A stretch of DNA of 64,000 nt from Alphaproteobacteria bacterium (lineage in GTDB: Bacteria; Pseudomonadota; Alphaproteobacteria; RF32; CAG-239), in contig JAFTYO010000022.1 in assembly GCA_017464685.1 (NCBI GenBank), positions 2,836 to 66,835 on the forward strand, given 5' to 3'. The notes below the pieces were generated by a model that did not search any database, had not been told where the DNA came from, and saw only the letters and a list, made by a program, of their open reading frames with translations. Numbering within the stretch: the first letter of the stretch is position 1; each line of letters begins with the position of its first letter. The position numbers were made by a program, and so were the translations under genes. Positions 24,211-42,188 of this stretch are shown in pieces.

Positions 24211-24287
24211 CGGATTGTAGTTCAGCCTGGTAGAACGCTTCGTTCGGGTCGAAGAGGTCGCTAGTTCGAATCTAGTCAATCCGACCA
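24211..24287 (+). tRNA. tRNA-Pro (anticodon CGG)
   Basis: Acceptor CGGATTG/CAATCCG, anticodon stem CTTCG/CGAAG with loop TTCGGGT (G37), T-arm GGTCG..TTCGAAT, then ACCA. Confidence 0.85.
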
Positions 24288-25796
24288 TACATGACGAAAG
24301 CCTCCAGAGAGGATGTTCTCTAGAGGCTTTCTTATTGAAAATAAAGGATTTTTTCCTTCTAGCAAAAAGTTCGAATAAAGCAATTTTAAAACCTTCCGTT
24401 TTTCTTGGCAATTCGAACTTTCATAAATCTCAGGTATCTTAGATACCAATAAAATCAGCTCTTCTAAGCTGTTTAACCCTTGCTTTGTTACTTCATTATA
24501 ATGTGATAATTTTTTATCTAGATTTTCGATTTGTTTTGTAATTTCATCATATTTTTTATTATATTGTTCCTGTGTAATACTATTATTAAGACGCATATCA
24601 AGCAACATATCCAAATTGTTTTCCAACTGAGTCTTTTTGCTTTTCAAAATCCGTCTTTCCTCTATTTCTATTTTGTGCTTTTCTTTAATTTCTTGTTGAA
24701 TCAAAACCAATGTATCTTCAAGTAGCTTTAACGGCATTTTTTTGAGCCTACACAAGTCATCTTTAATTTTAGCGTCAACTATATTCTCGTTAATACGAGT
24801 GTCTTTACAATGAGGGCAAAACAGATATTTATGCACGCGACCGTTTTGTTTATATTTGACATCCGGCGTAATCATTTTTCCGCAATGTTTGCAAAATATC
24901 ATACCGCGATATACGTCCTCAACTTTACGCTTCCGATGGAAAGACCTCCCGAGGAGGAGGTCTTGGCATTTATCAAATAATTCTTTACTTATGAGCTTTT
25001 CGTAATTGTGAGGGTAAAGTTTACCGTAGCACTTCATAAAACCGTAGTAAAACGGATTCTTTAGCATATTTATGATTGTTTGCTTATGAACTTTGTTCTT
25101 TTGTTTCTTTTTATACCGTCTCGTTTTAAAACCCAATTCGTCCGCGAGACGTGTCAAATCTGCCAATGAATATGTACCTGTCGCATATTCACGAAATAAT
25201 TTTTTTACAATCGGTCCCATAATCGGGTCAACCAGAATAGTTGTACTGTGTCTGCTATAGCGTTCGTTATAATACCCGACAGGAGCACCGCTAAAATATT
25301 CTCCGGTATCAGGCATGGCTTCCATTCCTCTTTTAACGTTATCCGACAGATTGCTAGTGTAACCTGAGGCAAGTAATATTTCAAATTGATATCTCATCCA
25401 ATCGTTACCAGATGAGTGTTTATTCAAAACCAATCCGCTTGTTACAAAATGAAGTTGCACCCCATTCATAACCAAATCATAAATTGTGCTATATTCTTTA
25501 AAGCTACGTTGCAACCTATCCACTTTATCACACACAATGGCAATCGGTGGCTTTTGTTTTTTTATAAAATCTATTACCTCATTAAATTGTTTTCTGGGAC
25601 CCCTTGTTGAACTTTCCTCAAAGGAAATAGTTTTTATAATAGGCATATGAAGGCGCTCGCAATATTGCTTGATACGACTATCTTGTGCATCCAACGAATA
25701 CCCTTCTGCTTGTTCGCGCGTTGATACGCGAGAAAAAGAAACAGCTTTAATATTTTGTGCCATATTTTTTTCACTTTCATTTATAAATTTTGTCAT
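24276..25796 (-). CDS. large serine recombinase (506 aa)
   Basis: N-terminal resolvase-type catalytic domain (AVSFSRVSTREQ, VCDKVDRLQRS), then a recombinase domain, a Cys4 zinc ribbon (CKHCG...CPHCKD) and a coiled coil. Its 3' end overlaps the 3' end of tRNA-Pro by ~12 nt. Confidence 0.8.
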   Translation of the reverse strand: MTKFINESEKNMAQNIKAVSFSRVSTREQAEGYSLDAQDSRIKQYCERLHMPIIKTISFEESSTRGPRKQFNEVIDFIKKQKPPIAIVCDKVDRLQRSFKEYSTIYDLVMNGVQLHFVTSGLVLNKHSSGNDWMRYQFEILLASGYTSNLSDNVKRGMEAMPDTGEYFSGAPVGYYNERYSRHSTTILVDPIMGPIVKKLFREYATGTYSLADLTRLADELGFKTRRYKKKQKNKVHKQTIINMLKNPFYYGFMKCYGKLYPHNYEKLISKELFDKCQDLLLGRSFHRKRKVEDVYRGMIFCKHCGKMITPDVKYKQNGRVHKYLFCPHCKDTRINENIVDAKIKDDLCRLKKMPLKLLEDTLVLIQQEIKEKHKIEIEERRILKSKKTQLENNLDMLLDMRLNNSITQEQYNKKYDEITKQIENLDKKLSHYNEVTKQGLNSLEELILLVSKIPEIYESSNCQEKRKVLKLLYSNFLLEGKNPLFSIRKPLENILSGGFRHVWSD

Positions 25797-27797: not shown

Positions 27798-28124
27798 ATG
27801 AATAAGCAGAAAATATTACTAGCTACAGGAGAAATTCTACAAACTGAGCGAAAAAAACAAAAAATTAAGCAAATTGATTTAGCTAAAAAAATTGGCTGTT
27901 CGACATCCGGTCTTTCTAAAATTGAAACTGGTACTGTAGAGATGAAATATTGTACTTTTATTGAAATTTGTGAAAATTTAAAATTAGATCCCAGTAAGGT
28001 ACTTAAACAGGCTGTAGAAATGTCACCTACAAGCTTAAAATGCTTTAAAAAAATTGAAAGTATGCTTCCTGATAAAAATTCGAAGATTGATTTAAATACC
28101 CTGATAGACTTCAATACCCTTTAA
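27798..28124 (+). CDS. XRE-family helix-turn-helix transcriptional regulator (108 aa)
   Basis: Cro/C1-type HTH (IKQIDLAKKIGCSTSGLSKIETG). Confidence 0.65.
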   Translation: MNKQKILLATGEILQTERKKQKIKQIDLAKKIGCSTSGLSKIETGTVEMKYCTFIEICENLKLDPSKVLKQAVEMSPTSLKCFKKIESMLPDKNSKIDLNTLIDFNTL

Positions 28125-28504
28125 TACTCCTCAGCCAATAAAATCGTCAGAACACGATTAGTGATTGTTTCATCGCTTGGGTCTAAGCTCAAGTATTGAT
28201 ATTCAACGTCGTAATAATCGATTTTCCAAAAATAAGTTACGCCGTCAAGGTCAAACGAGCCGAAGTCATGCTCGCCGTTTTGGTCGTTGTCTTGATTAAA
28301 ATTGCTGAAATTTCTGATTTTTTCTGTTATCTCAAGCTGCTTATCTATCGGCAATTCTGCTACGCCTCGCGTTATTAAAACCCGACCGCCTGAAAAATTT
28401 TGTCTTAAGTTATCGTTAAGCTCCCGAATTTTTTTGATTTTATCGTCCATATTGCACCTTTCGTTTAAAACAGAAAGAGCCGGAATTGCTTCCGACCCTT
28501 TCAT
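28121..28504 (-). CDS. DUF3768-like protein (127 aa)
   Basis: Carries a ...DFGSFDLDGVTYFWKIDYYD... block. This resembles a small protein family seen on plasmids and integrative elements of alphaproteobacteria. Confidence 0.4.
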   Translation of the reverse strand: MKGSEAIPALSVLNERCNMDDKIKKIRELNDNLRQNFSGGRVLITRGVAELPIDKQLEITEKIRNFSNFNQDNDQNGEHDFGSFDLDGVTYFWKIDYYDVEYQYLSLDPSDETITNRVLTILLAEEY

Positions 28505-28655: not shown

Positions 28656-31547
28656 ATGATTACGGCAGAAGAAATAAGAGCGAAATATTGGGCTTTAGAA
28701 GTGCTGTCCTCACATAACCAAGAGGACATTAACAGCATTTCAGGCTCACTCGGCACATCTAAAATTGATTTGAATCCGCATCAGATTAATGCGGCGCTGT
28801 TTGCTTTGCAATCGCCTATATCGCAAGGCGTCATCTTAGCCGATGAAGTCGGTCTCGGTAAAACAATTGAAGCCGGAATTGTCATTTCAGAGTATTACTC
28901 ACGCGGCAAAAATTCAATAATTGTTGTTGCTCCTGCCAGTTTATGCCAACAATGGCAAACAGAAATGCAGGACAAATTTAATTTGCCGACACAAATTTTA
29001 GATAGCAAAATTATACATTCTGCCTTAAAAAATGAAGATACTGCCGTTTTGCAGTTTAAGGGCATAACAATTTGCTCTTATAACTGCGCCGTTCAATTCA
29101 AAAAAATAATGAAAGACCGCGATTGGGATTTGGTCGTTATTGATGAAGCTCATAAACTGCGCAACTTTTATAAAGGCAAGACTAAAATTGCCGAAGGCAT
29201 TAACGAAACTTTTCTCGGCAAGAAAAAATTACTTTTGACAGCGACGCCTATTCAAAATTCGCTCATGGACATTTTTTCACTTGTCAGCATTATAGACCCG
29301 AGCATTTTAGGCAATGAATATTCTTTTATGGAAAATTACCTTTATTCCGAGCAGCATCACGAAGAGCTTAAACGCCGCTTACAATGTGTTTTGCATAGAA
29401 CTTTGCGCCGTGATGTCTTAGAATATATTAAATATACCAATCGTGAAGCTATGACTGTCGCTTTTAATCCCACAAAAGCCGAAGAAGAACTTTATACTGC
29501 CGTTTCGGCTTATATTCAGGATATTTCGCAAATTGCTATTACGACACGCTTCAGAACGCTTATTGTGCTGATGATACGCAAATTGATGAGTTCTTCAACT
29601 GCGGCGGTCAAAGGAACACTTAAAGGCTTAATGAATCGCTTAAATACTCTTGAAAAGTCAAGCGGCAGCCTTGATAAGCTCGCTAACTTTATGTTTGACG
29701 AAGACCTTTTAAGCGAATACGAAGATAATATTGAAGATTTTGAACTCAAGCAAGCACTCAATAAGCCGAGCTTCAAAAAAGAAGATATAAAAGCAGAAAA
29801 AGAATTTTTGCAAAAATTGATTGATAAAGCCGCAAAAATCAAAGTTGACGGCAAGACCGAAAAGCTGATTGGCGCTATTGAACAAGGTTTTGAAAAAATA
29901 CAAGCCAAAGGCGGACTTCGCAAAGCTATTATCTTTACCGAAAGCAATCGTACGCTGAATTACCTCTATGATTATTTAAGCTCGCACGGTTTTAAGGACA
30001 AAATCGTTACCTTTAACGGTCAGAATAATTCGCCGCTTACCAATCAGATTTACAACGATTACGTCGAGAAACATTCATCAGATTTGACCGGTTCGCGCAC
30101 TAATGATATGAAAAAGGCGCTTGTTACGAAATTCAAAGAAGATGCTGAGATTATGATCGCTACCGAAGCGGCTGCCGAAGGCTTAAACCTGCAATTCTGC
30201 TCTTTGCTTGTCAACTATGACTTGCCATGGAATCCGCAACGTGTAGAGCAGCGTATCGGGCGCGTGCATCGTTATGGGCAAAAATGCGATGTCGTTATTA
30301 TCAACTTTATCAATAAGAAAAACGTTGCCGATGTTCGACTTTATGAGATTTTGCAACAAAAATTCAAATTATTTGACGGCGTATTCGGCGCAAGTGATGA
30401 GATTTTAGGCACATTGTCCGACGGCGTTGACTTTGAACGTGCCGTTGCCGATATTTTTGACCTTTGCCGCACGACCGAAGAAATAAATCGTGCCTTTGAC
30501 GAGCTGCAAGAAAGATTGGGCGTTAAACGCGAAGAAAAAATAGAAGAAGCCAAGCAGCTTGTTTTAGAGAATTTAAGCCCGACAACACAAGAAAAACTGC
30601 ATATTATGAAACAGCGCGTTGAAGATTATTTAGAGCGCCGCAAGCAGATTTTCTGGGATTTGACTGTTGTAATGCTTAAAAAATATCATCCTGAAATGTT
30701 TATCAACGAGCATACAAAAGTTTTCGGACAGTTTAAGGAGCAAGTATTCAATCTGCCGTCAGAGATTAACTTTGCTAAAAGCTTCAACTATTGCTTAAAC
30801 TTTAATAAACGCGAAATCAATCGAGATTTATTGTTGCCGAAAGAGCGCAAAGCCTTAAATCGTTCAGCAACGACTTATAATCCTGATTCCGGCTTCGGTA
30901 AGCGTATTTTGAGCGAAGCATTAAATTTGACTGCTGAGCCTTTACACTTGCAATTAAATCCGTCAGATAAATTAAAATCAGGGCAAAAAGGGCGTTTAGA
31001 GCTGTCTTTATTTAAGATGACGCAACCCGAGGACGTCAATTATTTAATAACGACAATAATGTCCGACAGCGGCAATTTACTGAATTTGCGGGCAGAAGAT
31101 ATTTTTGATAATGCCATCAATGTTGAAGAGCCGCTTTTAATGGGCTATCACGACTTATTAAGTCAAATTCACGAGCAAAACATTGCAAAATATGAAAAGT
31201 CTGAAAAAAAGCGCATTGACAATATTTTGCGTGCCGAAGTCGATAAGCTTAATCGTTGGCTGATAGATGAAAAGCAAGCCATACACTTGAAAGGCGATAA
31301 ACTTAAAAATAAGATTACGAGCCTTAAGCGGCAGCTAAAGCAAGAGAAAAATTTTGATGCCAAGCTTGCCATAAGTGTCGAGATTAAAAAGCTGCAAGAA
31401 GAAATGAACAACAACGAGTTCAATACTTTTGATACCGAGCGCGAGCTTGAAAAGAAATGTAATCGCCTCGTTGGCGGCAAAAAGCGCAGCTTAAAGATAG
31501 ATTACAGCATCGAGCCGATATTTGATATTACTTGGGAAGTTGAGTAG
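28656..31547 (+). CDS. SNF2-family helicase/ATPase with a ~400-aa coiled-coil C-terminal extension (963 aa)
   Basis: Motifs I (LADEVGLGKTIEAG), II (VVIDEAHKLRN), III (LLLTATPIQNS) and VI (QRIGRVHRYGQ) are present. The ATPase begins ~40 aa from the N-terminus. Confidence 0.85.
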   Translation: MITAEEIRAKYWALEVLSSHNQEDINSISGSLGTSKIDLNPHQINAALFALQSPISQGVILADEVGLGKTIEAGIVISEYYSRGKNSIIVVAPASLCQQWQTEMQDKFNLPTQILDSKIIHSALKNEDTAVLQFKGITICSYNCAVQFKKIMKDRDWDLVVIDEAHKLRNFYKGKTKIAEGINETFLGKKKLLLTATPIQNSLMDIFSLVSIIDPSILGNEYSFMENYLYSEQHHEELKRRLQCVLHRTLRRDVLEYIKYTNREAMTVAFNPTKAEEELYTAVSAYIQDISQIAITTRFRTLIVLMIRKLMSSSTAAVKGTLKGLMNRLNTLEKSSGSLDKLANFMFDEDLLSEYEDNIEDFELKQALNKPSFKKEDIKAEKEFLQKLIDKAAKIKVDGKTEKLIGAIEQGFEKIQAKGGLRKAIIFTESNRTLNYLYDYLSSHGFKDKIVTFNGQNNSPLTNQIYNDYVEKHSSDLTGSRTNDMKKALVTKFKEDAEIMIATEAAAEGLNLQFCSLLVNYDLPWNPQRVEQRIGRVHRYGQKCDVVIINFINKKNVADVRLYEILQQKFKLFDGVFGASDEILGTLSDGVDFERAVADIFDLCRTTEEINRAFDELQERLGVKREEKIEEAKQLVLENLSPTTQEKLHIMKQRVEDYLERRKQIFWDLTVVMLKKYHPEMFINEHTKVFGQFKEQVFNLPSEINFAKSFNYCLNFNKREINRDLLLPKERKALNRSATTYNPDSGFGKRILSEALNLTAEPLHLQLNPSDKLKSGQKGRLELSLFKMTQPEDVNYLITTIMSDSGNLLNLRAEDIFDNAINVEEPLLMGYHDLLSQIHEQNIAKYEKSEKKRIDNILRAEVDKLNRWLIDEKQAIHLKGDKLKNKITSLKRQLKQEKNFDAKLAISVEIKKLQEEMNNNEFNTFDTERELEKKCNRLVGGKKRSLKIDYSIEPIFDITWEVE

Positions 31548-31986
31548 ATTTTTGCTCTTGTGTAAATTTTCTTGCTATAAAGAAAGCATCAATAACTTCG
31601 TAAAACATTAAGAAATATAAGCTGAATAACAACACCTCAACTCCTTTAATAATATACTCCACCCATAAATTATCATAATATTCGTCAGGCGTAGCAACAA
31701 AGCATATTATCTGAAATCCATATATAATTAGCATTGTCAAAATATTCTTTTTCAAGGTTTTTTGCGTATTTAGACACTTGGTTTCAAATTTTTCCTGTAT
31801 ATTATCAAAAATCACTGTAAAGGCAGTCACAACCCCTACATATATAGCTAACATATTGCCCATTATGGCAAGAGATTCCTTCTCCATAAATTTTTGAAGA
31901 AATCCGTTATCAATATTATAATCTAAAATGAGTATAGGAAAAACTATACCGACAATAATCCCGGATAAAATACAAAACGTTCTCAT
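31528..31986 (-). CDS. small 4-TM membrane protein (152 aa), last gene of the Res-Mod operon
   Basis: Four hydrophobic helices. Its start is 1 nt after the upstream stop, and its 3' end overlaps the convergent SNF2 gene by 20 nt. Confidence 0.45.
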   Translation of the reverse strand: MRTFCILSGIIVGIVFPILILDYNIDNGFLQKFMEKESLAIMGNMLAIYVGVVTAFTVIFDNIQEKFETKCLNTQKTLKKNILTMLIIYGFQIICFVATPDEYYDNLWVEYIIKGVEVLLFSLYFLMFYEVIDAFFIARKFTQEQKSTQLPK

Positions 31987-31987
31987 G

Positions 31988-32878
31988 CTATTTCCTCAAT
32001 AAAATGTTCATTATCCCAGTTAATTGCTCTTTTGTTAAATTTTGACCGCGCAATGTAATATCCGTATCAACAAAAGATTCTGTTTTTATAGTATCATTAC
32101 TTGATATTGCTTTCTTTTTATTCCCTTTAAATTGTAGTTTAAATGTGCCTGCTCCTAAATCTACATATTCGGCACTTTCTTTGAGAAGTTTGTTGTTTTC
32201 TGATAAAGTTAAATTTCCATCCGTGTTTTCCATACTTATTTGAACTTTTGTAGAATTAAACTCTCCGGCAACAGATCTTAAGTCATTTTCTAATGATGAT
32301 TTAAGGTCTAGCAGGTTCGGTGGAATATAAGAAAATGTAATTTTTTTAATTTTACCTTCATTTTCTTTTACAACATTCCAAAATAAAGTTTTTTCAGAAG
32401 GTATGGAATTTATTGTTAAGAAAAATCCATATTTCTGTATATCTCTGTTAATAGCAGAAGCTAAATTTTGCAATACAGAAGCCCTATATTTCATATCCAC
32501 ATTATTAACTTGCACTAATAAAAGCTGTCCTTTTTTCGCAGTTTCTCCGCTATTGTGTTCGTTTGATAAATTTATGAATATATCGCACCCTGGCCAATCT
32601 TCAATTTCTCTTGTTTTAAAGCCTTCTTCAGGCGCTGTTCTTATATTCTTTTTAACTCGTTTACCAATATTGGCAAACACATACGAGCCTTCTTTTTGCT
32701 TTATATAAAGACAATAATCTTTTTCTCTACTTCTAAATTTATATGTTTTATCTGGTGAAAACATATCATCAATAACTTCTTCTCTTGTTTTTTGCTGACA
32801 AAAGGGAAGTTCAGGTTCCTCAATTGGGGTTAGAAAAAATCTATAATATTCAAAAAGTTCTTTAGAATTATTAGTCAT
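31988..32878 (-). CDS. hypothetical protein (296 aa) directly downstream of mod
   Basis: No recognisable motif. A 3-nt gap separates it from the mod stop. Confidence 0.4.
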   Translation of the reverse strand: MTNNSKELFEYYRFFLTPIEEPELPFCQQKTREEVIDDMFSPDKTYKFRSREKDYCLYIKQKEGSYVFANIGKRVKKNIRTAPEEGFKTREIEDWPGCDIFINLSNEHNSGETAKKGQLLLVQVNNVDMKYRASVLQNLASAINRDIQKYGFFLTINSIPSEKTLFWNVVKENEGKIKKITFSYIPPNLLDLKSSLENDLRSVAGEFNSTKVQISMENTDGNLTLSENNKLLKESAEYVDLGAGTFKLQFKGNKKKAISSNDTIKTESFVDTDITLRGQNLTKEQLTGIMNILLRK

Positions 32879-32881
32879 ATT

Positions 32882-34546
32882 CTATTCTTCCTCTTCTTCA
32901 AATTCAAAATCTTCGTCGGTTGGTGTGTATTTGCTGAGGTTGAGAGGGTAGCCTTCGCGACCCCATTCGCATTTTTTCAAAATTGCCGACGGGATTTTTT
33001 TAACAGTAATGTTCGGATAAGCATTTTTATTGCCGACAAAGGCGCTGCAACAAATAAGCAAATTATCGTTGCCGACTTCTGTTGCTAACTTGCCTAAAGA
33101 TTCCTCTTGCACGCTCATTGTCGTGGTATAAATAAAGCTCTTTTCAGAAGAAAAGCCCTGTTTCCAATACTTTTCAGCGTCCGGCTTATAATGATAGCCC
33201 AAAATCTTACACATTGCCTCAGCGAGCATATCAGCGTTGTATTTGTCCGAAATAATCTGCTGTCCGTATTTGTCTTTGACGATTAAAGATGATGCTAATT
33301 CATAGAATTTGAAACCGCCGCCACAAAGCCAACCGGTTGATTTTGTGACACCTGTGGAATCATTACCGGTAATAATTTCTTGCAGTCGTGGTATACAATG
33401 CGTATAAACATGGTCGCCCATTTCTACACCTATCCAACGACGCCCCATTTTATGCGCCACCGCCGCTGTTGTTCCCGAACCTAAAAAGCTATCAAGAACC
33501 AAATCTCCCGGTTTTGTCGACATTTCTAAAATTCTTTTAATTTGAACTTCCGGTTTTTTACTTTTAGCAAACGTTACTCCACCTTCACGCGCAATCCCTT
33601 GATAGTTCATATCATCCCATATATTTGTTACCAACTCTGCTGTTGTTAATTTTCCATCAATCATATGTAATTTATCTTTATAAAACAGTATTCTATTACC
33701 TTTATAAAGGTAAATATCTGGGTATCCCTCTCTTTTTTGTAAATATATTTTGTTGTCTTTCTTAGATAAATCAATAAGTTGTCTTGTTTCTTGTCCTACT
33801 GCTTTATAATCAGGCTGAGCAAATCTGATAATTTGGTTTGCATAACTGTTAAAATCTTTATCTAATGAAAATTTATATTTTTGCATAGCTTCTTTTAAAG
33901 GTATAAAACTCCAATTTTCAAAACCGCTATCGTAATTTTCAATAAATTGTGAATATGCTTTGTCATACTCACGAGCTTTGTAAACTGGTTGATAAACCCA
34001 TTTTTCTTTATTTTTTGCATATGTTAACATCAAATCGCAAACTTGAACAGGTGTAGGATTAATTGCTTTATGACCTGTTGCAGCCCCCCTTTTGATAGTT
34101 GTCATTATAATAAAATTTTTTCTACCGAAAATCTCATCACAAAGAACTTTTAAGTAATGTCCTTCGTTTTCATCGATTGAAATCCAAATACTCCCGTCTT
34201 CTGTGAGTAATTTTCTCAAAATTTCTAATCTATCACGCATTAAAGATAGCCAAATTGAATGTTCTAAACCATCATCATAATACAAAAAGGCACTTCCGGT
34301 GTTATATGGCGGATCAATATAAATACACTTAACTTTGCCGGTATAATCCTGCTCCAAAGCCTTCAACGCCAACAAATTATCACCATGAATTAGCATATTA
34401 TCGTAAGTCGGCTGAACTGAACCTTTTTCAGTCGGCTCAAAGGAAAATGACTTTTCCTTATCTTCAAGCAAAATACGTGGCTCTGGGTTAAATCTGTCTT
34501 CTTTCCCCGGCCATGTTAACTCTAATCTTGTCAATTTCTCAGTCAT
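32882..34546 (-). CDS. mod: Type III restriction-modification Mod subunit (beta-class N6-adenine DNA methyltransferase)
   Basis: Motif IV (IYIDPPYN) lies N-terminal to motif I (DSFLGSGTTAAVA), the beta-class order. The likely true start is MTEKLTRLELTWPGK at 34546, overlapping the upstream stop as ATGA. Confidence 0.8.
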   Translation of the reverse strand: MTEKLTRLELTWPGKEDRFNPEPRILLEDKEKSFSFEPTEKGSVQPTYDNMLIHGDNLLALKALEQDYTGKVKCIYIDPPYNTGSAFLYYDDGLEHSIWLSLMRDRLEILRKLLTEDGSIWISIDENEGHYLKVLCDEIFGRKNFIIMTTIKRGAATGHKAINPTPVQVCDLMLTYAKNKEKWVYQPVYKAREYDKAYSQFIENYDSGFENWSFIPLKEAMQKYKFSLDKDFNSYANQIIRFAQPDYKAVGQETRQLIDLSKKDNKIYLQKREGYPDIYLYKGNRILFYKDKLHMIDGKLTTAELVTNIWDDMNYQGIAREGGVTFAKSKKPEVQIKRILEMSTKPGDLVLDSFLGSGTTAAVAHKMGRRWIGVEMGDHVYTHCIPRLQEIITGNDSTGVTKSTGWLCGGGFKFYELASSLIVKDKYGQQIISDKYNADMLAEAMCKILGYHYKPDAEKYWKQGFSSEKSFIYTTTMSVQEESLGKLATEVGNDNLLICCSAFVGNKNAYPNITVKKIPSAILKKCEWGREGYPLNLSKYTPTDEDFEFEEEEE

Positions 34547-34925
34547 TCTTTTGTTCTTTCTTAAGTTGTTGTGCCAATTCCAAAATTTTTTCTTCACTTT
34601 CCAAACAGTTATCTGCCTCTTCCATGAATTTATAACAATCCTCTAAACTAACCGGAGAGGCAGGAACATTGTTAATGGGATTTATGGGTAACGTTCTTAA
34701 TTTTGAAATTTTGTATAACAATAATGTTATAGGATGATTAATTTCATTATCATCAATATGCAACGGAGTCCTTGTGTAAGTGTTAGCTACTTCAAATCCA
34801 AAAATAAGCATAAAATTAAAAAGCTCATTTTCTGAACCGTATTTGTTCATCAGCTTTATAGCCTTCCTCATAACAGATTCAAACTTATCTTTTAGCTTTT
34901 CTTCTAACTCTTGCTCTGTCATCAT
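34539..34925 (-). CDS. hypothetical protein (~128 aa) between rhuM and mod
   Basis: ATGA overlaps at both ends: the RhuM stop overlaps its start, and its stop overlaps the mod start. Confidence 0.35.
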   Translation of the reverse strand: MMTEQELEEKLKDKFESVMRKAIKLMNKYGSENELFNFMLIFGFEVANTYTRTPLHIDDNEINHPITLLLYKISKLRTLPINPINNVPASPVSLEDCYKFMEEADNCLESEEKILELAQQLKKEQKND

Positions 34926-35977
34926 TTTTGTTCCTTTTTCTTTGCCCAATCTTCAAGCTCTAAAAAGCGGTCAAAGTCACTTTGATACAGCTTATCTTGA
35001 ATAATCCGATATTTTTCAAACTCTGTTTCAGCGTGTTGTTTAGCCAGCTCTGCCGAAACTTTACCGGCGTCTTGCAAAATTTTATGGTCTAACATTGTTA
35101 AAAAGCCGTTTAAGCGTTGTTCCCAATCTTCCATTGTCATAGGAATATGGCGCATAGCCATTAACTCTGCCGTATCTAAGTAGGCGTTCACAATTCGCTC
35201 TAATTGCTTTAATTCAAACTCAGTCAAATAGTTTTTAGCAATAACTACATCATATTTGTGAATTTTGCTATCTGGAGCACCTTCCCATGTCGTCAAGCCC
35301 ATATGCTCTTTTTCTGCATCGGCACGGTCATAAATCACTTCTGCCGCAGTTTGCCCATGCACCGCATAATGCAATTTATTTTGAACTGCCGCAAAAAAGC
35401 GTTTTGTCGCTGTTGCCGTTGCGTCATAATCTACGGCGGTTGCGTAAATGTCTGTTACTTTTTGATAAAATCTGCGCTCAGATAAACGAATTTCGCGGAT
35501 TTTTTCTAATTGCTTTTCAAAATAATCTTGTGTTAATACTGAGCCGCCTTGCTTTAAGCGCTCAACGTCCATTACCCAGCCTTGAATGGTATAATCCTTA
35601 ACAATTTGATTTGCCCACTTACGAAATTGTACCGCGCGCTCGTTATTGACTTTGAAGCCGACGGCAATAATCATTTGCAAATTATAATGTGCAACTTCGC
35701 GCGAAATTTGACGATTACCCTCATTTTGAACTATTAAGTATTTCTTAATAGTTGCATCTTCTGACAATTCATTGTCGTCATAAATTTTCTTAATATGTTG
35801 ATTTATTGCAGAGACAGAAACATCATAAAGTGTCGCCATCATTTTTTGCGTAAGCCAGATATTCTCATTTTCATAGCGCATTTCAACACTTATCGGGTTA
35901 TCACCGGTTGCAGCTATAAATGTTAAATATTCGGCTGCTGATGAACGAATTGTTATTTCTTGTTTTTTCTTTGCCAT
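34922..35977 (-). CDS. RhuM-family protein
   Basis: Characteristic RhuM N-terminal block (NIWLTQKMMATLYDVSVSAINQHIKKIYDDNEL ... YNLQMIIAVGFKVNNERAVQFRKWANQIV). Its start is 1 nt after the res stop. Confidence 0.75.
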   Translation of the reverse strand: MAKKKQEITIRSSAAEYLTFIAATGDNPISVEMRYENENIWLTQKMMATLYDVSVSAINQHIKKIYDDNELSEDATIKKYLIVQNEGNRQISREVAHYNLQMIIAVGFKVNNERAVQFRKWANQIVKDYTIQGWVMDVERLKQGGSVLTQDYFEKQLEKIREIRLSERRFYQKVTDIYATAVDYDATATATKRFFAAVQNKLHYAVHGQTAAEVIYDRADAEKEHMGLTTWEGAPDSKIHKYDVVIAKNYLTEFELKQLERIVNAYLDTAELMAMRHIPMTMEDWEQRLNGFLTMLDHKILQDAGKVSAELAKQHAETEFEKYRIIQDKLYQSDFDRFLELEDWAKKKEQK

Positions 35978-35978
35978 T

Positions 35979-38681
35979 TTATCTTGCCTCATAATCTCTT
36001 ACCAGTTTTTCAAAACTGCGGTCTAGGGTTACGGTATTATCAGGTATCAACAAATAATGCCAAGCTTTGCCGTTATGCTTTTTCTCAAAGTCCGTTGCAA
36101 TTTCGCACCACTTCAAAGCCGCTTCTTTCTTGGCTAATACTGTCTTGTCCGTCATTTGATTTGAAGCCTTCGTTTCAATCATATACTTGCCGCTGATTGT
36201 TTCGACGATAAAGTCAGGGTAATAATTATGAAGCTGACGCTCATCATCAGGATATTTGATATTAAATATCTCTTTTGCCCTGTCATTATTCGGCTTAAAC
36301 CATTTTAAAACTTCGCCGGCATTTTCTAAAATTTCAGAAAGGTCTTTCTCTGTTGACGAATCAAACTTTTGCTTATCAAACAGGCATTTCTTAAAGCCGG
36401 TAAAAATCATATTTTTAATTTTAGACTTGTCGTGAACAGAAGCACGATAGTCAAGCGGCGTTTCGCCTTCTCTTGCCAGCATTTTATATGATTCCGACGT
36501 TTGTGTGCCGTAGTCGCTGTCAACTTTAACAGTTAATTCCATTTTAGCCGGACATAAATGCGCTTTCATCTGCAGCATAATTTTATGTGCGATGTCAACG
36601 CCGTTCCAAAACAGAATTTTGCGTGTATTTTCTTCGCTACCCGAATAAGAGTTGATGTAGTCAATCGTCTGTCTCACGAGCTTTTGAATTAAGTCGGCAT
36701 TTTCTTGATAAGAAACAATCATTTCATCAACCAAAGGCACAAGCAAATAGTGTGTTATATCTTCATAGCGGTCAAAAAATTCGGCTTGCATTTCGTCGCG
36801 ACCATGCCCGATAATTTCTTGAATTATCATTTTTTGAGATTCCGGCTTATAGCCGTTAAAATCTGCCGTGTCTATATCAAAATCATAAAAGCTGAAACTG
36901 TTTAATTGACGATAAGTTTGGATAATTCTCGGGATATTAATCGTCATTTTAATAACTGTGTCGGTCATATTTTTAGCCGTTTGCGGTAAATCAACAGTTG
37001 CCTCTAACGAAAGCTCCGAATTTTCCAACTTCATATATTTGAGCTTTTGCTCAGCCAGTTCGACGATTTTTTCTTGATTTTCTTTGCTTTTCAAGTCCTC
37101 AGGATTAAGAACATAGCGTCCTGTTTCAGCAATAGCCTCGCGAACAGCTTCGCCGATTTTGCGATTATCTTCATTTGTAAACACCGGTAAAGTTGCTTGT
37201 TTAGGCTGTGGCTTCGGCACAATTATATTGCCGTTTTGCAGTTCTTCATCAATTTTACTGGTGCTTGTTTCGACTGTTTTGCCGATTAAGCCGTTATCGC
37301 TATTATCAATATATTCTTGCTGAAATTCAAAGGACTGGTCGCGAGCTGCTTTAATAATGTCAGCAAATTTATCATGCGCGACGACGTGCAAGCGGTCTAT
37401 GGCTTCATCGTCGGTCAACTTGCCGTAAGGTAAACGCAAGCCGCGTCCGATAGACTGTTCTACCAAAATTTTTGAATCTGCTGTTCTGAGCGGCACAATC
37501 GTATAAAGATTGTTTACATCCCAACCTTCGCCGAGCATATTGACGTGTATCACGATTTCAGTCAGCTCGTCAGCATCTTCTATTTGCAATAAGCGTTGCA
37601 AGACTTCGTCTTTTAGCTCGCCGTTTTGCTTAGAGTTAACGACAATTACCTTGTCTTTATAGCGTCCTTCTTCAAAATCATCGCTCTTTATTTTGGCTTC
37701 AATGGCTTCAGCATGAGCAATATCCTTAGCAATTATCATCATAAAAGGCTTAACTTTACGTACCTTTTTATTGTCCGCATAAACCGCCAATTCAGCCTTA
37801 ACGCTCTCATGCACTTGAATGCCGTCTTTGATTTTTAAGTCTTCTAATGTGTCTTCGTCATATTGATTTTTATTAAAATCTGTGCGTCCGACGATAGCAG
37901 GCTTTTTAACAAAGCCGTCTTTTATGGCGTGAGCGAGATTATACTCATAAGCAATATTTCTGAAAGGCTTACCTTTTGCGCCTGTTGACTTTGCCGTAGC
38001 AGTCAGCTCAATACCTAAAACAGGATTCAGCTCATTAATTGCCGCCATACCGGCATTTGCACGATAGCGATGCGCCTCGTCCATAATCAGCACTAAATCT
38101 TTTAAGCCGGACAAATAATCGAAATACGATTGCCCTAAATATTCTGCCATACGGCGAACTCTCGGCATACCGCGTGCGTCTTTGTCTGAATCAATTTTAG
38201 AAATGTTGAAAATATTGATACGCAAGCGGTCATCATTAGGATTATCAAACAAGCCGCCGACTTGATCATAGTCATCGCCTGTAATAATTTGCGGCGTGCC
38301 GACATAAGTATTAAGACCAGGAAAAACATATTTAGCTGTGTTTGGCGTAAAATCTGTTTTTAATTTATTATAAATTGTTAAGTTTGGTGCCAAGACCATA
38401 AAATTTTTGATACCACATTCGGCATGAAGATACGCAATCATTGCACCCATTAAGCGCGTTTTACCGACGCCTGTGGCGATTGCAAAGCATATACAAGGGA
38501 AAGCACGCTCAAAATCTTTGATTGACGGACGCACTTCTTGAATAAGACGTAAAGCCTCTAAAGTGTCCATATTCTTAGCCAAAGTTATCTTTTCTAAGAT
38601 ATTTACCAAAATATCAAGGCTGTCTGTTTGCGGCTGACGCAAAGAAAGAGCTTGATTAATCATACGCTGCGTTTCGTTCAT
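35979..38681 (-). CDS. res: Type III restriction enzyme Res subunit (SF2 helicase plus C-terminal PD-(D/E)xK nuclease), 900 aa
   Basis: Walker A (ATGVGKT), DEAH (IMDEAH) and motif VI (QSIGRGLRLPYG). The C-terminal nuclease motif is YPDFIVE...IETK. Confidence 0.75.
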   Translation of the reverse strand: MNETQRMINQALSLRQPQTDSLDILVNILEKITLAKNMDTLEALRLIQEVRPSIKDFERAFPCICFAIATGVGKTRLMGAMIAYLHAECGIKNFMVLAPNLTIYNKLKTDFTPNTAKYVFPGLNTYVGTPQIITGDDYDQVGGLFDNPNDDRLRINIFNISKIDSDKDARGMPRVRRMAEYLGQSYFDYLSGLKDLVLIMDEAHRYRANAGMAAINELNPVLGIELTATAKSTGAKGKPFRNIAYEYNLAHAIKDGFVKKPAIVGRTDFNKNQYDEDTLEDLKIKDGIQVHESVKAELAVYADNKKVRKVKPFMMIIAKDIAHAEAIEAKIKSDDFEEGRYKDKVIVVNSKQNGELKDEVLQRLLQIEDADELTEIVIHVNMLGEGWDVNNLYTIVPLRTADSKILVEQSIGRGLRLPYGKLTDDEAIDRLHVVAHDKFADIIKAARDQSFEFQQEYIDNSDNGLIGKTVETSTSKIDEELQNGNIIVPKPQPKQATLPVFTNEDNRKIGEAVREAIAETGRYVLNPEDLKSKENQEKIVELAEQKLKYMKLENSELSLEATVDLPQTAKNMTDTVIKMTINIPRIIQTYRQLNSFSFYDFDIDTADFNGYKPESQKMIIQEIIGHGRDEMQAEFFDRYEDITHYLLVPLVDEMIVSYQENADLIQKLVRQTIDYINSYSGSEENTRKILFWNGVDIAHKIMLQMKAHLCPAKMELTVKVDSDYGTQTSESYKMLAREGETPLDYRASVHDKSKIKNMIFTGFKKCLFDKQKFDSSTEKDLSEILENAGEVLKWFKPNNDRAKEIFNIKYPDDERQLHNYYPDFIVETISGKYMIETKASNQMTDKTVLAKKEAALKWCEIATDFEKKHNGKAWHYLLIPDNTVTLDRSFEKLVRDYEAR

Positions 38682-38858
38682 TTTTAGGCCTTTTAATGAA
38701 TTTTAACAATGCAGCCAGTTTACAAGAGATGTTTGATACTTGCAAGCCTTAGAGTCATTCAATAACAAGATTCTTTAAGTATAGAGCTTAAAAAAAGGCT
38801 TCACGCCCTAAGACATGAAGCCGACACAATAATAACACTAGTGTTAAGTTAACTTATT

Positions 38859-39209
38859 TCAGAGGTGCAGTCTTGCGAAAACTTTGTATTCATCTTTCGG
38901 ATTGGTAAAGAAGATTTCCTTAGGCTTATGCGTTACCGTAGAAATTCTCTCAGGACGAGGTATGGCAATCATTTCGCAATAATCATCTGTCATATTTTCT
39001 ATTGCCGACATTTCTGCTTTTAAATATCCTTCACCGCAAGTTCCAAAAAAATAAAAAACTTTGTCCTGATTATAATATCCGGCTTCAAAAAAATTCTCTT
39101 TTTCTTCTTCTGTCACACACCGCAAAATCTCCGTTTTATCATCTTTATAATAGCGCAGGGCATACTCATAAGCTTTGTTATCAGTACAAATATAATAAAC
39201 TTCAATCAT
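38859..39209 (-). CDS. small protein paralog B (116 aa)
   Basis: Shares the YY(I/L)C.D..AY.(Y/F)AL..Y...F..G(T/H)C..GYLK(A/M)E pattern with 39223..39570. Confidence 0.4.
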   Translation of the reverse strand: MIEVYYICTDNKAYEYALRYYKDDKTEILRCVTEEEKENFFEAGYYNQDKVFYFFGTCGEGYLKAEMSAIENMTDDYCEMIAIPRPERISTVTHKPKEIFFTNPKDEYKVFARLHL

Positions 39210-39222
39210 CGTCTTACCCTCG

Positions 39223-39570
39223 CTAATTTGTCCGTAAAATGTCCTTGTCGTTGATAATATAGCCTTCGATATATTCTTCTAACGGCTTGCCTGTAAGGCG
39301 AGATTTTTGAGCTCTGTAAGGTATGTAATAGCCTTCAAATTTTTCGGGATAAATTGTTAAAAATTTTTTGAGCTCCATTTTCAAATAGCCGTTGTGACAA
39401 TGTCCGAAAACATAAAATTTTTTATTTATATTTTCAAAAATGAGCCAACCGGCGGCATCTGTATCTTTCTGTATTTCACAAAATGCCACTTGAGTAAAAG
39501 TATCTGCATAATTTTTTAAGGCAAATTTATATGCTCTTTTGTCGCAGCATAAATAATATGTTTCTTTCAT
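39223..39570 (-). CDS. small protein paralog A (115 aa)
   Basis: Tandem paralog of 38859..39209, 14 nt upstream of it. Confidence 0.4.
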   Translation of the reverse strand: MKETYYLCCDKRAYKFALKNYADTFTQVAFCEIQKDTDAAGWLIFENINKKFYVFGHCHNGYLKMELKKFLTIYPEKFEGYYIPYRAQKSRLTGKPLEEYIEGYIINDKDILRTN

Positions 39571-39882
39571 TTTGTTAATCCTTATAAAAACTAAGCTGAT
39601 TTTCCCTTACATTTAAAATTATTAAAGAGATGTATGAATGTTATGAATTTTTGAGGCATTGTTTTATTTATTTTTCAACTACCGAGAAATTCTCGGCTGT
39701 TCAACTATCCGGAATTTCCGAACAGTTCGTTTTGCCTTAGAACTCGACTCATTATAGAATACATATTTTATAATAAGTCCTTATTTTTCAATGGCTTGAG
39801 AAATTCTGTTCTTGAACTTTTGTACGAACTCATTATAATTTATTTGTAAAATCAGATATTTATAATAAGTTTGGAGGTCAAA
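39571..39882. promoter_or_regulatory. 312-bp intergenic region with clustered palindromes, a candidate switch or operator
   Basis: Palindromes CCGAGAAATTCTCGG, CGGAATTTCCG and CGAACAGTTCG at 39682..39731. Short inverted repeats CTGATTTT/AAAATCAG lie near both ends (39596..39603 and 39849..39856). Confidence 0.35.
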
Positions 39883-40482
39883 ATGTCTATTGGTAAGCAA
39901 GCAAAAATCTTAAGCGACAAACAGCAAAATCTAACTCTGGCGCATTTAGAAACAACGCGCTATCCGTTACGCAATAAAATTATATTTTTACTCAGTTTCA
40001 AAGAAGGGCTGAGAGCCAAAGAAATTTCAAAGTTAGTTTGGGGTATGGTATGCAGTTCTGAGGGCAAAATTGCCGATGTCATTAATTTAAGCAACAACGC
40101 AAGCAAAGGTAAATACTCCGGCAGAATAATCCCTCTGCATAAAGAGTTGAAAATTTTACTGGCTGATTTGCTAGCTGAAAGGCAGAAAGATGAGTATTTC
40201 AATTTAGATAAGCCGGTTATTACGACCGAGCGAGGCGAGCATACGACGCCGCAAGTTATTGTCAATTTTTTCTATCACTTATATAAAACAATCGGCTTCA
40301 ACGGCTGTTCGTCACATAGCGGTCGCAGAACTTTTATTACAAATGCGGCAAAGCACATAAGTTTGGTCGGCGGCACATTGAACGATGTCAGATTACTTGC
40401 CGGTCACTCATCACTTGCTACCACCCAACGCTATATTGCTTACGACACCGAGGCTCAGAGAAGAATTGTAGAAATGAGCTAA
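39883..40482 (+). CDS. small tyrosine recombinase, FimB/FimE-sized and catalytic-domain only (~199 aa)
   Basis: Box I Arg (GLRAKEISKL), then HSGRRTF and LAGHSSLATTQRY (H-x-x-R...Y). There is no N-terminal arm-binding domain. RBS GGAGG lies before the ATG at 39883. Confidence 0.7.
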   Translation: MSIGKQAKILSDKQQNLTLAHLETTRYPLRNKIIFLLSFKEGLRAKEISKLVWGMVCSSEGKIADVINLSNNASKGKYSGRIIPLHKELKILLADLLAERQKDEYFNLDKPVITTERGEHTTPQVIVNFFYHLYKTIGFNGCSSHSGRRTFITNAAKHISLVGGTLNDVRLLAGHSSLATTQRYIAYDTEAQRRIVEMS

Positions 40483-40486
40483 CCAA

Positions 40487-41290
40487 CTAAGAAAATAAGT
40501 CCCCTTGAGCTTTAATTGGCGGATAAAATACCCCTGTAATTACAAAAGGGTTTCTGCTCTTTTTTAAATGATTATCATAAGTTGTTCCTAAAAACAAATA
40601 AATGTCTTTGTTCTTTACGAATCCCATGTATTTATCTTTGACTGCTTGACAAGCTTTTTCTTCATTATTTTCTTTTTTCATTATGTTCAAATATAATTGA
40701 GGTGCCTCCCAATCTTCAATCATAAGTTTGGATTCTACATCTTCATCATCTTCAAAAATATAGGAAAATACATATGGTATTTTAGGCATTAACACAAATT
40801 CTTTAGCTTCTTCGAAAAGGCTTTCTTGTTTAGCTTTATTTTTTATAAATTCAACTTTTTCTTTTGGCCATTCTCTGTCTGTAGGTTTTATATTAAATCC
40901 TGTAATCTTTGATGGCTTAAATGTAGCCAAAGAAAGTTTATTGTTTTGGGCTAAATCTATAATTTCTTTTTTATTTGTATATATTTTTGTTTTAAACACA
41001 AAATTCTTGCGTTCTTGCCACGCATTCTCTGTTCCTAATTTATTTAATAATTTAATGCTATCAACATTTGTAGGATTCAATGATTCAGGTCTAGGGTCAG
41101 CTGTTCGTTTTATTAAATCTAGTTCTATCCATTGATATTTACTATATTGCGTATATAATTTCCTGTATGGTACAGGATAAATGCGAATCCAATTTCCATT
41201 TTCGTCAATTCCTGCAGTACATACCGTTTCATCATATTTATTTGATAATGTAGGATAAGTTTTAACTGTTATCAAAACTTTCTTTTTCAT
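40487..41290 (-). CDS. hypothetical protein (267 aa), downstream partner of the DUF488 fusion gene
   Basis: Its start is 1 nt after the upstream stop. No motif recognised. Confidence 0.4.
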   Translation of the reverse strand: MKKKVLITVKTYPTLSNKYDETVCTAGIDENGNWIRIYPVPYRKLYTQYSKYQWIELDLIKRTADPRPESLNPTNVDSIKLLNKLGTENAWQERKNFVFKTKIYTNKKEIIDLAQNNKLSLATFKPSKITGFNIKPTDREWPKEKVEFIKNKAKQESLFEEAKEFVLMPKIPYVFSYIFEDDEDVESKLMIEDWEAPQLYLNIMKKENNEEKACQAVKDKYMGFVKNKDIYLFLGTTYDNHLKKSRNPFVITGVFYPPIKAQGDLFS

Positions 41291-41291
41291 C

Positions 41292-42188
41292 TTAAATATG
41301 CTCCAAAACCAAAGCCTTTTGCATTTTTACAAGAGCATTGGCAACTCTTGCGCGATGACACATATGATAATCTGCTTCGAAACAAGTTAATGCAACTCTT
41401 CTGTATTCTTTAATCAAATTTAAAATTTTATTCAAATAAAGTTCGCTATGAGCAAGAGTTGTTTTTTCATAATGGCTAAATAATTTTTCATAATCAGCCA
41501 TTGTGTTTAGTTCAATACGTTGTTCCGATTCGATGCCAAGTTGCGGAATATTAATATATTTAATGCCTACTCGTTCAATTAAATTTTGCATAGAAGATTT
41601 AGAAAAGCCATATTTCCTACTTATAGGATTTCTTCTTACATCGCACACCAGTTTTATGTTGTTTTTTATCAGTTTGTTTATATAAGCATCGACACTATTT
41701 GCTTCATACCCTATAGTAAACAACCTTTTTTCGTTTGACACATCTAGGGTATATCTGTCTTGCGTGGGAAATATTCTGTTATAAATTTCACTATTTATAG
41801 TATAATAAGGGTATCTTTCATATACATACCGAATTAAATCATCGCCCTTATATTTCGAATATATCTCCTTAAATTTTACAATTTTGTTCCTATCATTAGC
41901 ATCTAATAAAGAAATATAGTCTGTATCATTATCTGTTAATTTTAAGTTTTCAGAATAGGTTAAGTAATTAGATGCTTCTAAATTTCGCAAATCAGCATAA
42001 GACTGAAAAGAAAAGCAACCATATTTATATGGCACAAAATCATAATCTCTTTTTCCATCTGGCTGGCAGATTTGTGTATAAAGAAATAAATATTTTTGAA
42101 AATCAGTACGCTCTAATTCACCACCAAAAGCGTTCAATAATGCCAACATTAACTTTTGTCTGTAAAACATATCTTTTCCTAACAACAT
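41292..42188 (-). CDS. two-domain protein: N-terminal Panacea(DUF4065)-like region plus C-terminal DUF488 domain (298 aa)
   Basis: The C-terminal block LFTIGYEANSVDAYINKLIKNNIKLVCDVRRNPISRKYGFSK...GIKYINIPQLG matches the DUF488 consensus. The N-terminal RQKLMLALL...FVPYKYGCF weakly resembles Panacea/SocA. Confidence 0.5.
   Translation of the reverse strand: MLLGKDMFYRQKLMLALLNAFGGELERTDFQKYLFLYTQICQPDGKRDYDFVPYKYGCFSFQSYADLRNLEASNYLTYSENLKLTDNDTDYISLLDANDRNKIVKFKEIYSKYKGDDLIRYVYERYPYYTINSEIYNRIFPTQDRYTLDVSNEKRLFTIGYEANSVDAYINKLIKNNIKLVCDVRRNPISRKYGFSKSSMQNLIERVGIKYINIPQLGIESEQRIELNTMADYEKLFSHYEKTTLAHSELYLNKILNLIKEYRRVALTCFEADYHMCHRARVANALVKMQKALVLEHI

Follow-up and report, generated by a model that had tools for sequence, protein, structure and literature searches.

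We analysed a gene run on the minus strand at 31528-38681 of the window, by which we mean the whole 64,000-nt stretch of contig JAFTYO010000022.1 (positions 2,836 to 66,835, forward strand) of an alphaproteobacterial metagenome-assembled genome (MAG), assembly GCA_017464685.1. The run combines the genes of a Type III-like restriction-modification (RM) system, res and mod, with a RhuM-family gene (rhuM), a small open reading frame (orf128) and a gene pair, orf296 and orf152, the second of which encodes a protein with four transmembrane (4-TM) segments. An earlier sequence-only reading had taken these six genes for a single candidate module of RM-linked defence or abortive infection. Both the list of open reading frames (ORFs) and the sequence confirm that six consecutive minus-strand ORFs lie there, and the labels that had been given to four of the products, Type III Res, RhuM, Type III Mod and 4-TM protein, agree with the domain matches and with four hydrophobic segments. 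What that reading left out is the convergent gene of an SNF2 helicase, which runs 20 nt into the 3' end of orf152 and whose product appears, as described below, to be a conserved third partner of this Res/Mod family. The genes, and the signal upstream of them, are as follows.

35979-38681, minus strand: res, 900 aa
34922-35977, minus strand: rhuM, 351 aa (356 aa from an in-frame alternative ATG at 35992)
34539-34925, minus strand: orf128, 128 aa
32882-34546, minus strand: mod, 554 aa from the ATG
31988-32878, minus strand: orf296, 296 aa
31528-31986, minus strand: orf152, 152 aa
28656-31547, plus strand: SNF2 helicase gene, 963 aa, convergent to the six-gene run
38797-38822, minus strand: strong terminator-like hairpin just upstream of res, with an 11-bp stem (6 of its pairs are GC) and a T7 run after it

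Of the five junctions that had been proposed between these genes, four are exact in the sequence: res/rhuM is TAA-A-ATG, rhuM/orf128 is an ATGA overlap, mod/orf296 is TAG-AAT-ATG with a gap of 3 nt, and orf296/orf152 is TAG-C-ATG with a gap of 1 nt. The fifth, orf128/mod, had also been given as ATGA but is an 8-nt overlap, ATGACTGA, in which the ATG is at 34546-34544 and the TGA at 34541-34539. Because the hairpin lies upstream of res and the same scan found no convincing terminator-like hairpin within the six-gene run, it is plausible that the six minus-strand genes form one transcription unit, the start of which this terminator-like structure would mark. A search for an internal promoter of orf296 gave one 9/12 consensus match abutting its ATG, but it was among the weakest listed and was discounted; the overall count of promoter-consensus matches was only modestly, about 2 standard deviations, above the shuffled mean.

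The restriction core and the cargo slot

Res matched Pfam ResIII (1e-21) and PADLOC REase_III (5e-170), and it carries the motifs GVGKT71, DEAH201, QSIGRG409 and PD823...E836-x-K838. It also matched the TnsA-like endonuclease N-terminal domain at 3.5e-05 and 24.7 bits, which is under the 26.5-bit cutoff, and the NCBIfam Type III equivalog models scored far under their cutoffs. Judged by its motifs and domains, Res is a Type III-like restriction subunit made of an SF2 helicase and a C-terminal PD-(D/E)xK nuclease. Mod matched Pfam N6_N4_Mtase (3e-41) and PADLOC MTase_III (1.4e-166), and in it DPPY78 stands ahead of FLGSGTT354, which is the beta-class order (motif IV before motif I); on the same kind of evidence it is a Type III beta-class N6-adenine/N4-cytosine methyltransferase. 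The SNF2 protein carries Pfam SNF2-rel_dom and Helicase_C, and it scored 657.6 bits with the NCBIfam model DISARM_DrmD_b against a cutoff of 950 bits.

When plasmids were searched by tblastn with Res and the regions found were then annotated, SNF2, Mod and Res homologues were seen to occur together on one strand of Sphingopyxis, Aeromonas and Salmonella plasmids, where they are 35-48% (SNF2), 47-56% (Mod) and 40% (Res, over its full length) identical to those of the window. Together with a Monoglobus plasmid these loci (L036, L037, L038 and L039) are arranged as follows.

Sphingopyxis plasmid: SNF2 - cargo - Mod - Res, the cargo being a 527-aa unknown protein
Aeromonas plasmid: SNF2 - cargo - Mod - IS - Res, the cargo being an AAA_21 ATPase and DUF4276
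Salmonella plasmid: SNF2 - cargo - Mod - Res, the cargo being an Abi_2 protein
Monoglobus (Bacillota) plasmid (L039, Monoglobus pectinilyticus NZ_OY725736): SNF2-like helicase, RhuM, Mod...Res

Res, Mod and SNF2 thus appear to be a conserved trio, in which SNF2 is the third partner of this Res/Mod family. The cargo differs from plasmid to plasmid, and the family seems habitually to carry embedded accessory genes. The order of res and mod in the window deserves comment. It had been pointed out that res comes before mod, the reverse of the canonical order, and this order is indeed present, with res upstream and two cargo genes between, whereas in the homologous plasmid trios mod is directly upstream of res. 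As the trios elsewhere run SNF2-cargo-Mod-Res, the order in the window is by all appearances a rearrangement peculiar to its lineage, which put res in first place and left the SNF2 gene converging on the operon. Except for the gene order and the SNF2 partner, the Type III core is ordinary.

To these genes the comparison of strains adds two variable segments.

34547-35978, minus strand: strain-variable cargo slot between res and mod
33586-34112, minus strand: variable central region of mod (target-recognition domain), exactly where the DNA homology to loci L008-L016 breaks

For this comparison loci with orf296 relatives were fetched (numbered L001 onwards) and their DNA was compared with that of the window. 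In strains that keep the RM genes (L008-L016, L022 and L026) the homology spans res to its stop codon and then ends, it returns some 10-100 nt before the mod ATG, is lost once more at mod 34112-33586, and then spans the end of mod, orf296, orf152 and SNF2. In L008-L012 the block in common with the window has its limits exactly at the res start and the SNF2 start. The break inside mod is also seen in the L022 protein, of which residues 1-151 and 321-542 align with the window Mod and the middle does not. The centre of mod has apparently been swapped between otherwise similar strains, and this looks like an exchange of the target-recognition domain that would alter the methylation specificity. 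The contents of the slot between res and mod are as follows.

Window: RhuM and orf128
L008, L012 and L022: one 248-aa gene
L009-L011 and L026: HTH-Panacea antitoxin, a 123/127-aa gene and a 252-aa gene
L013-L015: genes of 223, 235 and 124 aa

L022 is a MAG in which orf296 is 99% and Res 96.6% identical to the window and the target-recognition domain differs. Because this near-identical strain carries the 248-aa gene in place of RhuM and orf128, these two genes are, as far as the comparison of strains tells, exchangeable cargo at the strain level. This bears directly on the first proposal, that all six genes are one integrated and novel RM-linked defence system with interdependent parts. Such a system would agree with the tight or overlapping spacing of the six genes without an internal terminator and with the repeated embedding of the pair in Type III operons, but we now consider it most unlikely, as RhuM and orf128 are swapped for unrelated genes in strains whose flanking genes are 85-99% identical, the pair also occurs without any RM, and homologous RM trios occur without the pair.

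The RhuM protein matched Pfam PF13310 at 3.8e-111 (370.8 bits, cutoff 33.7) and the PADLOC candidate PDC-S05 at 2e-151. It is 70% identical to the RhuM of the Monoglobus plasmid, and because the two genes are 74% identical in DNA and their flanking genes have no similarity at the DNA level, the comparison suggests that the rhuM cassette moved recently across phyla between gut bacteria, one an alphaproteobacterial MAG and the other the host of a Bacillota plasmid. The rhuM coding sequence lies almost exactly between the two copies of an imperfect 20-nt direct repeat (17/20) at 34927-34946 and 35956-35975; the repeat may be due to chance, or may be a trace of the entry of rhuM into the slot. The sequence-only reading had not recognised the combination of genes as a described system, which holds for the orf296/orf152 pair, with neither a Pfam match nor a named PADLOC system, but not for RhuM, as a paper of 2013 (PMC3710099, Anantharaman et al. 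2013) described RhuM-like genes within RM operons and proposed that they are toxins. Cargo embedded in RM loci is a known theme too.

The product of orf128 is a small, acidic orphan with zero matches in Pfam, PADLOC, NCBIfam and PHROG, and a search of 5.8 billion proteins gave only 3 clusters for it. The 124-aa gene of L013, which occupies the same position, is 40% identical to it. The commonest occupant of the slot in related strains is a fast-evolving family of about 240 aa without a known domain, whose members (L008 7466-8212, L009 7458-8216, L013 7215-7922 and L022 5506-6252) are 23-38% identical to each other and which the window lacks. We also observed that the junctions at window 34546, 34925 and 32878, L013 7215, 7915 and 8282, L008/L009 8213 and L022 6249 have a common context, AAGGAAC-N4-6-ATGACT(G/A)A, as a result of which several unrelated cargo genes end with KND before the stop codon and the next gene begins with MT(E/N). 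This may be a common ribosome-binding and start context, or it may be a short linker that promotes gene shuffling. Besides several families that are unknown, the cargo recorded so far comprises RhuM, Abi_2, an antitoxin of the Panacea type, and an AAA ATPase with DUF4276. An SNF2-Mod-Res trio with an exchangeable slot is a useful guide toward new defence genes.

The orf296 and orf152 pair

The sequence-only reading had suggested that orf296 and the 4-TM gene look like a sensor and membrane-effector unit, and had called for a structure prediction. The AlphaFold model of orf296, built from a 78-sequence alignment, is a confident one (pLDDT 92, pTM 0.88), and it matches lambda RexA, RdgC, CHL4, CENP-N and IML3, which make up the RexA fold group. 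The model has an N-terminal multi-strand sheet and a long helix, a middle domain of beta-alpha repeats and a C-terminal helix, and this order of secondary structure is that of the RexA plan of split globular and dimerisation domains. The protein is thus predicted to have the RexA fold, that is, a split globular beta-sheet and an alpha/beta dimerisation domain related to those of RdgC, IML3 and CHL4. The pI values are also near-identical, 8.5 for orf296 and 8.6 for RexA. In orf152 there are four hydrophobic segments (about 3-21, 41-63, 82-100 and 116-137), and RexB, with 144 aa against the 152 aa of orf152, has four TM segments at matching positions; like a RexB-type partner, orf152 stands directly downstream of the gene for the soluble protein. 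The suggestion of a sensor and membrane-effector unit has therefore gained from this analysis, in that a predicted RexA/RdgC fold is paired with a RexB-sized 4-TM partner and the arrangement is conserved. Among viral models, a Foldseek search with orf296 also retrieved four gut phage proteins, uncharacterised and 277-314 aa long, that have the same fold as orf296 (E 1e-10 to 1e-15).

Close relatives of orf296 fall in 17 clusters, all from gut-type Alphaproteobacteria MAGs, and an exhaustive profile search extended the family to 702 relatives, mostly of 273-295 aa. Neither orf296 nor any of 78 sampled relatives matched a Pfam family or a named PADLOC system, and the only PADLOC match in the family was a weak one of orf296 itself to the candidate PDC-S15. 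Scans of orf296 and orf152 with NCBIfam and PHROG gave nothing usable, and neither did Pfam and PADLOC for orf152. The alignments of the wider family contain no conserved stretch of 7-10 residues. Scans for loci with a narrower alignment gave 7 loci in metagenomes and just 1 in genomes, where 185,579 species representatives yielded a single locus of the orf296 subfamily, and three scans of viral contigs together with tblastn against plasmids and phages gave only one Vibrio phage. No publication on the family was found in the literature searched, and judged by the libraries and papers covered here orf296 and orf152 represent a new family.

In every locus inspected a small 4-TM gene directly follows or overlaps the orf296 homologue. 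In two of them (L024 7780-8300 and L023 1150-1773) the gene finder missed the partner, which is nevertheless there in frame, and automated annotation probably under-reports the pair. In L007 (9838-10714) the orf296 homologue was called with 237 aa, and the 60 N-terminal residues that it lacks are encoded immediately before it (57% identity), which may be due to a frameshift or a miscalled start.

The settings of the pair are of two kinds. In L001-L006 the homology to the window is limited to 32881-31578, starting 3 nt before the orf296 ATG and stopping 50 nt before the orf152 stop, without an adjacent RM gene; upstream is a gene for a recombinase or a lysozyme, and downstream one with DUF7380. 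No relic of mod was detectable upstream of the stand-alone pairs in loci of this type. In L007 the pair is alone in an island, in L020 it is in a prophage-like region next to AbiTii, in L021 it belongs to a temperate phage of Vibrio and has a cI-like repressor nearby, in L032 it directly follows Gabija GajA-GajB, and in L024 it is next to fliI/fliJ, again with no RM gene in these settings. The second kind of setting is that of the window. The nearest four 50%-identity clusters (P0033-P0036, 30-39% identical to orf296) all have the order mod-pair-res with overlapping or near-abutting junctions; in their loci the coding sequence of Mod stops 2-10 nt short of the pair, and the Res start overlaps the TM gene in L018 and L019, where the junction was recovered, and lies 12-119 nt downstream of the called TM ORF in L033 and L035. 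The Type III family of these clusters is only distantly related to that of the window (Mod 29%, Res local 34% matches), and it follows that two divergent Type III families have come to include the pair, in both cases directly after mod. The first reading had allowed for the chance that homologues of the pair are never linked to RM or other defence genes, and this is not what was found, as relatives lie repeatedly by Type III RM and by other defence genes. Taken over all loci compared, orf296 and orf152 appear to be an autonomous, conserved module. Four independent metagenome contigs (L018, L033, L034 and L035) each start about 75 nt upstream of the orf296 homologue, in the last mod codons, and this suggests an assembly break where strains differ.

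Among about 12 independent lineages examined, the pair is embedded in RM genes in 5 and not in 7. That it directly follows mod in all five RM-linked lineages, and in two divergent Type III families, would fit a guard that is kept inactive by contact with Mod or Res and is set off once the enzyme has been disabled by an anti-restriction protein of a phage. There is a precedent in PrrC, whose gene is embedded in an RM locus and which senses inhibition of the enzyme (PMC12707154). With at least seven lineages having the pair without an RM neighbour, there can be no general dependence on Mod or Res, and a guard of the PrrC type seems to us distinctly unlikely.

The explanation that we regard as the best, although we believe it about as much as we doubt it, is that the locus is a composite of a Type III-like RM with its SNF2 partner, a cargo slot, and a Rex-like abortive-infection module. 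The three layers are separable because the DNA homology breaks at the res stop, before the mod start and inside the target-recognition domain of mod. According to this explanation Res, Mod and their SNF2 partner would restrict unmodified DNA first, and the slot between res and mod would carry exchangeable toxin-type cargo, which here is a putative toxin of the RhuM family and the 128-aa orphan. The orf296 protein, with its RexA/RdgC-type fold, would bind DNA or a phage DNA-protein intermediate and then open or activate the 4-TM orf152 protein; the membrane would depolarise and the infected cell would abort the infection, as a second line behind restriction. DNA binding, membrane depolarisation, the antiphage phenotype and cross-talk with the RM enzyme are steps that we infer.

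Several results weigh against the composite with a Rex-like module. By hhalign the probability of a sequence relation was 0.1% for orf296 with RexA and 4% for orf152 with RexB; a profile search of the PDB sequences gave nothing relevant and did not retrieve 8twq; and the Pfam RexA and RexB models matched neither orf296, nor the 78 relatives, nor the TM partners. As the sequence tests against both RexA and RexB are negative, the likeness to Rex that the model points to is one of fold and architecture only. It should be added that only 19 phage records in the phage collection match RexA at E < 1e-3, and these relatives are too few and too alike for a RexA family profile. The contexts inspected are about 12 for 702 relatives, so that the frequency of RM linkage is poorly estimated, and one of them, in which the pair is beside fliI/fliJ in a flagellar cluster (L024), is a non-defence context. 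An antiphage phenotype is known for no member of the family. Finally, Kiwa is a precedent for a 4-TM protein and a DNA-binding partner that act without killing the cell.

The flagellar locus raises the question whether the pair serves defence at all. It could be a membrane-anchored, RdgC-like factor in recombination or DNA handling, or a maintenance (addiction) pair of mobile elements that hitch-hikes in islands; RdgC is itself a housekeeping modulator of recombination, and apart from the one weak match to PDC-S15 the family has no match in named defence models. In most of the contexts inspected, on the other hand, the pair lies in an RM operon or a prophage, or has Gabija, AbiTii, Type I RM or Mrr as a neighbour, and the family is patchy and fast-evolving, with one locus among the species representatives for the subfamily, a pattern typical of accessory defence genes. 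A role outside defence is for these reasons very unlikely.

The precedent of Kiwa points to another mechanism, in which the 4-TM protein would be a membrane sensor of phage attachment or DNA entry and the soluble RdgC-fold protein would clamp incoming DNA and block replication, and the cell would survive. Both RdgC and RexA bind DNA without specificity, and RdgC encircles it as a ring (PMC11077077); Kiwa consists of a 4-TM protein and a DNA-binding partner that stalls replication (PMC11785009). Such an action would also fit the position of the pair beside an enzyme that acts on incoming DNA. The models of KwaA, KwaB and DUF4868 were, however, unmatched by any member (orf296, orf152 and the 78 relatives), and the gene order of the pair is the opposite of kwaA-kwaB, which is the conventional order in Kiwa. 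KwaB has moreover been described as a Rossmann-like domain with DUF4868 and not as a RexA fold (PMC11785009). We therefore think a Kiwa-like mechanism rather unlikely.

The composite with a Rex-like module can be taken one step further. The orf296/orf152 pair may be a widespread and unrecognised Rex-like abortive-infection system that Type III restriction has repeatedly taken on as an inbuilt second line. It would be expressed from the mod-res transcript, and its trigger would be either DNA ends or stalled complexes made by Res, or else the inhibition of the enzyme by a phage. This is a bold proposal and we consider it improbable as a whole, but if it is true, restriction failure would be coupled to membrane depolarisation. 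Rex is among the longest-studied phage exclusion systems and its mechanism is still unresolved; if the function of the pair is confirmed, Rex-type sensing and membrane killing could be studied in a wider set of systems, as this family would add about 700 relatives at the level of structure that have the same layout of two genes. The recurrent position directly after Type III mod would then be a concrete case of layered immunity in one operon, with restriction first and abortive infection second.

The surrounding island

At one side of the locus a large serine recombinase gene overlaps tRNA-Pro(CGG) with its 3' end (24211-24287 and 24276-25796), and beyond these are a DUF3768 gene (28121-28504) and then the defence block. 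The region from the serine recombinase and tRNA-Pro onwards looks like an integrated island; no att repeat matching the tRNA-Pro end was found. Just upstream of res, before its terminator, are two tandem, clearly paralogous small ORFs without a family match (38859-39209 and 39223-39570, of 116 and 115 aa), and beyond them a short tyrosine recombinase gene (39871-40482). At 40487-42188, on the minus strand, an unknown gene of 267 aa abuts the gene of a DUF488 protein, and these two may be a further small accessory unit of the island. On the plus strand at 9854-18391 there is a single ORF of 2845 aa, in a region of higher GC (0.37-0.39) with a strong positive GC skew.

Comparison with known systems

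Class 1 DISARM consists of the DrmD SNF2 helicase, the DrmMI methylase and DrmABC. The SNF2 protein of the window is nearest to the DrmD models and is likewise linked to an adenine/N4-type methylase, but it is under the NCBIfam cutoff and its nuclease partner is a Type III Res; DrmA, DrmB (DUF1998) and DrmC (PLD) were not present among the neighbouring ORFs scanned. With Kiwa the pair has in common a 4-TM protein and a soluble protein of about 300 aa, for which non-specific DNA binding would follow, in the case of orf296, by analogy of fold. It differs from Kiwa in that the KwaA, KwaB and DUF4868 models are unmatched, the gene order is reversed and the fold as described is another one.

PrrC in the Type Ic EcoprrI locus, and RhuM, DOC and HEPN genes in RM operons, are examples of genes of the abortive-infection or toxin type that are inside an RM operon and co-transcribed with it, and RhuM, which is present in the window, is among those described. 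Unlike in the PrrC locus, the host system of the window is Type III-like with SNF2 and not Type I, and the second embedded unit is a membrane pair and not an anticodon nuclease; in line with this, an ABC-ATPase and HEPN anticodon nuclease of the PrrC type was not found in the embedded genes with Pfam, PADLOC and NCBIfam, although the genes are embedded in the same manner. Compared with the classical Type III enzymes EcoP1I and EcoP15I, the window has the same beta-class N6_N4 Mod with a central variable target-recognition domain and the same Res architecture of SF2 helicase and C-terminal PD-(D/E)xK nuclease, whereas res before mod, the 1.4 kb of cargo between them, the SNF2 partner and the embedded accessory genes are different. 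Type III enzymes hemimethylate an asymmetric site, and for cleavage they require ATP and a pair of unmodified sites in inverse orientation.

The closest likeness in layout is to lambda RexA/RexB, which keeps out superinfecting phage through a loss of membrane potential, and to the Rex-like pairs of actinophages (Sbash, CarolAnn and Butters). The differences are that orf296 and orf152 are without detectable sequence similarity to RexA or RexB, that the pair of the window is chromosomal and inside a Type III RM operon and not in a prophage immunity region, and that an exclusion phenotype is known for Rex but for no orf296/orf152 member. What they share is a two-gene unit with the soluble gene first; a soluble protein of about 280-300 aa with a basic pI and a fold of the RexA/RdgC/IML3/CHL4 type, predicted in the case of orf296; and a partner of about 145-155 aa whose four TM helices occupy corresponding positions. 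As with Rex, some relatives of orf296/orf152 are in a prophage-like region and in a temperate phage, one of them beside a cI-like repressor.

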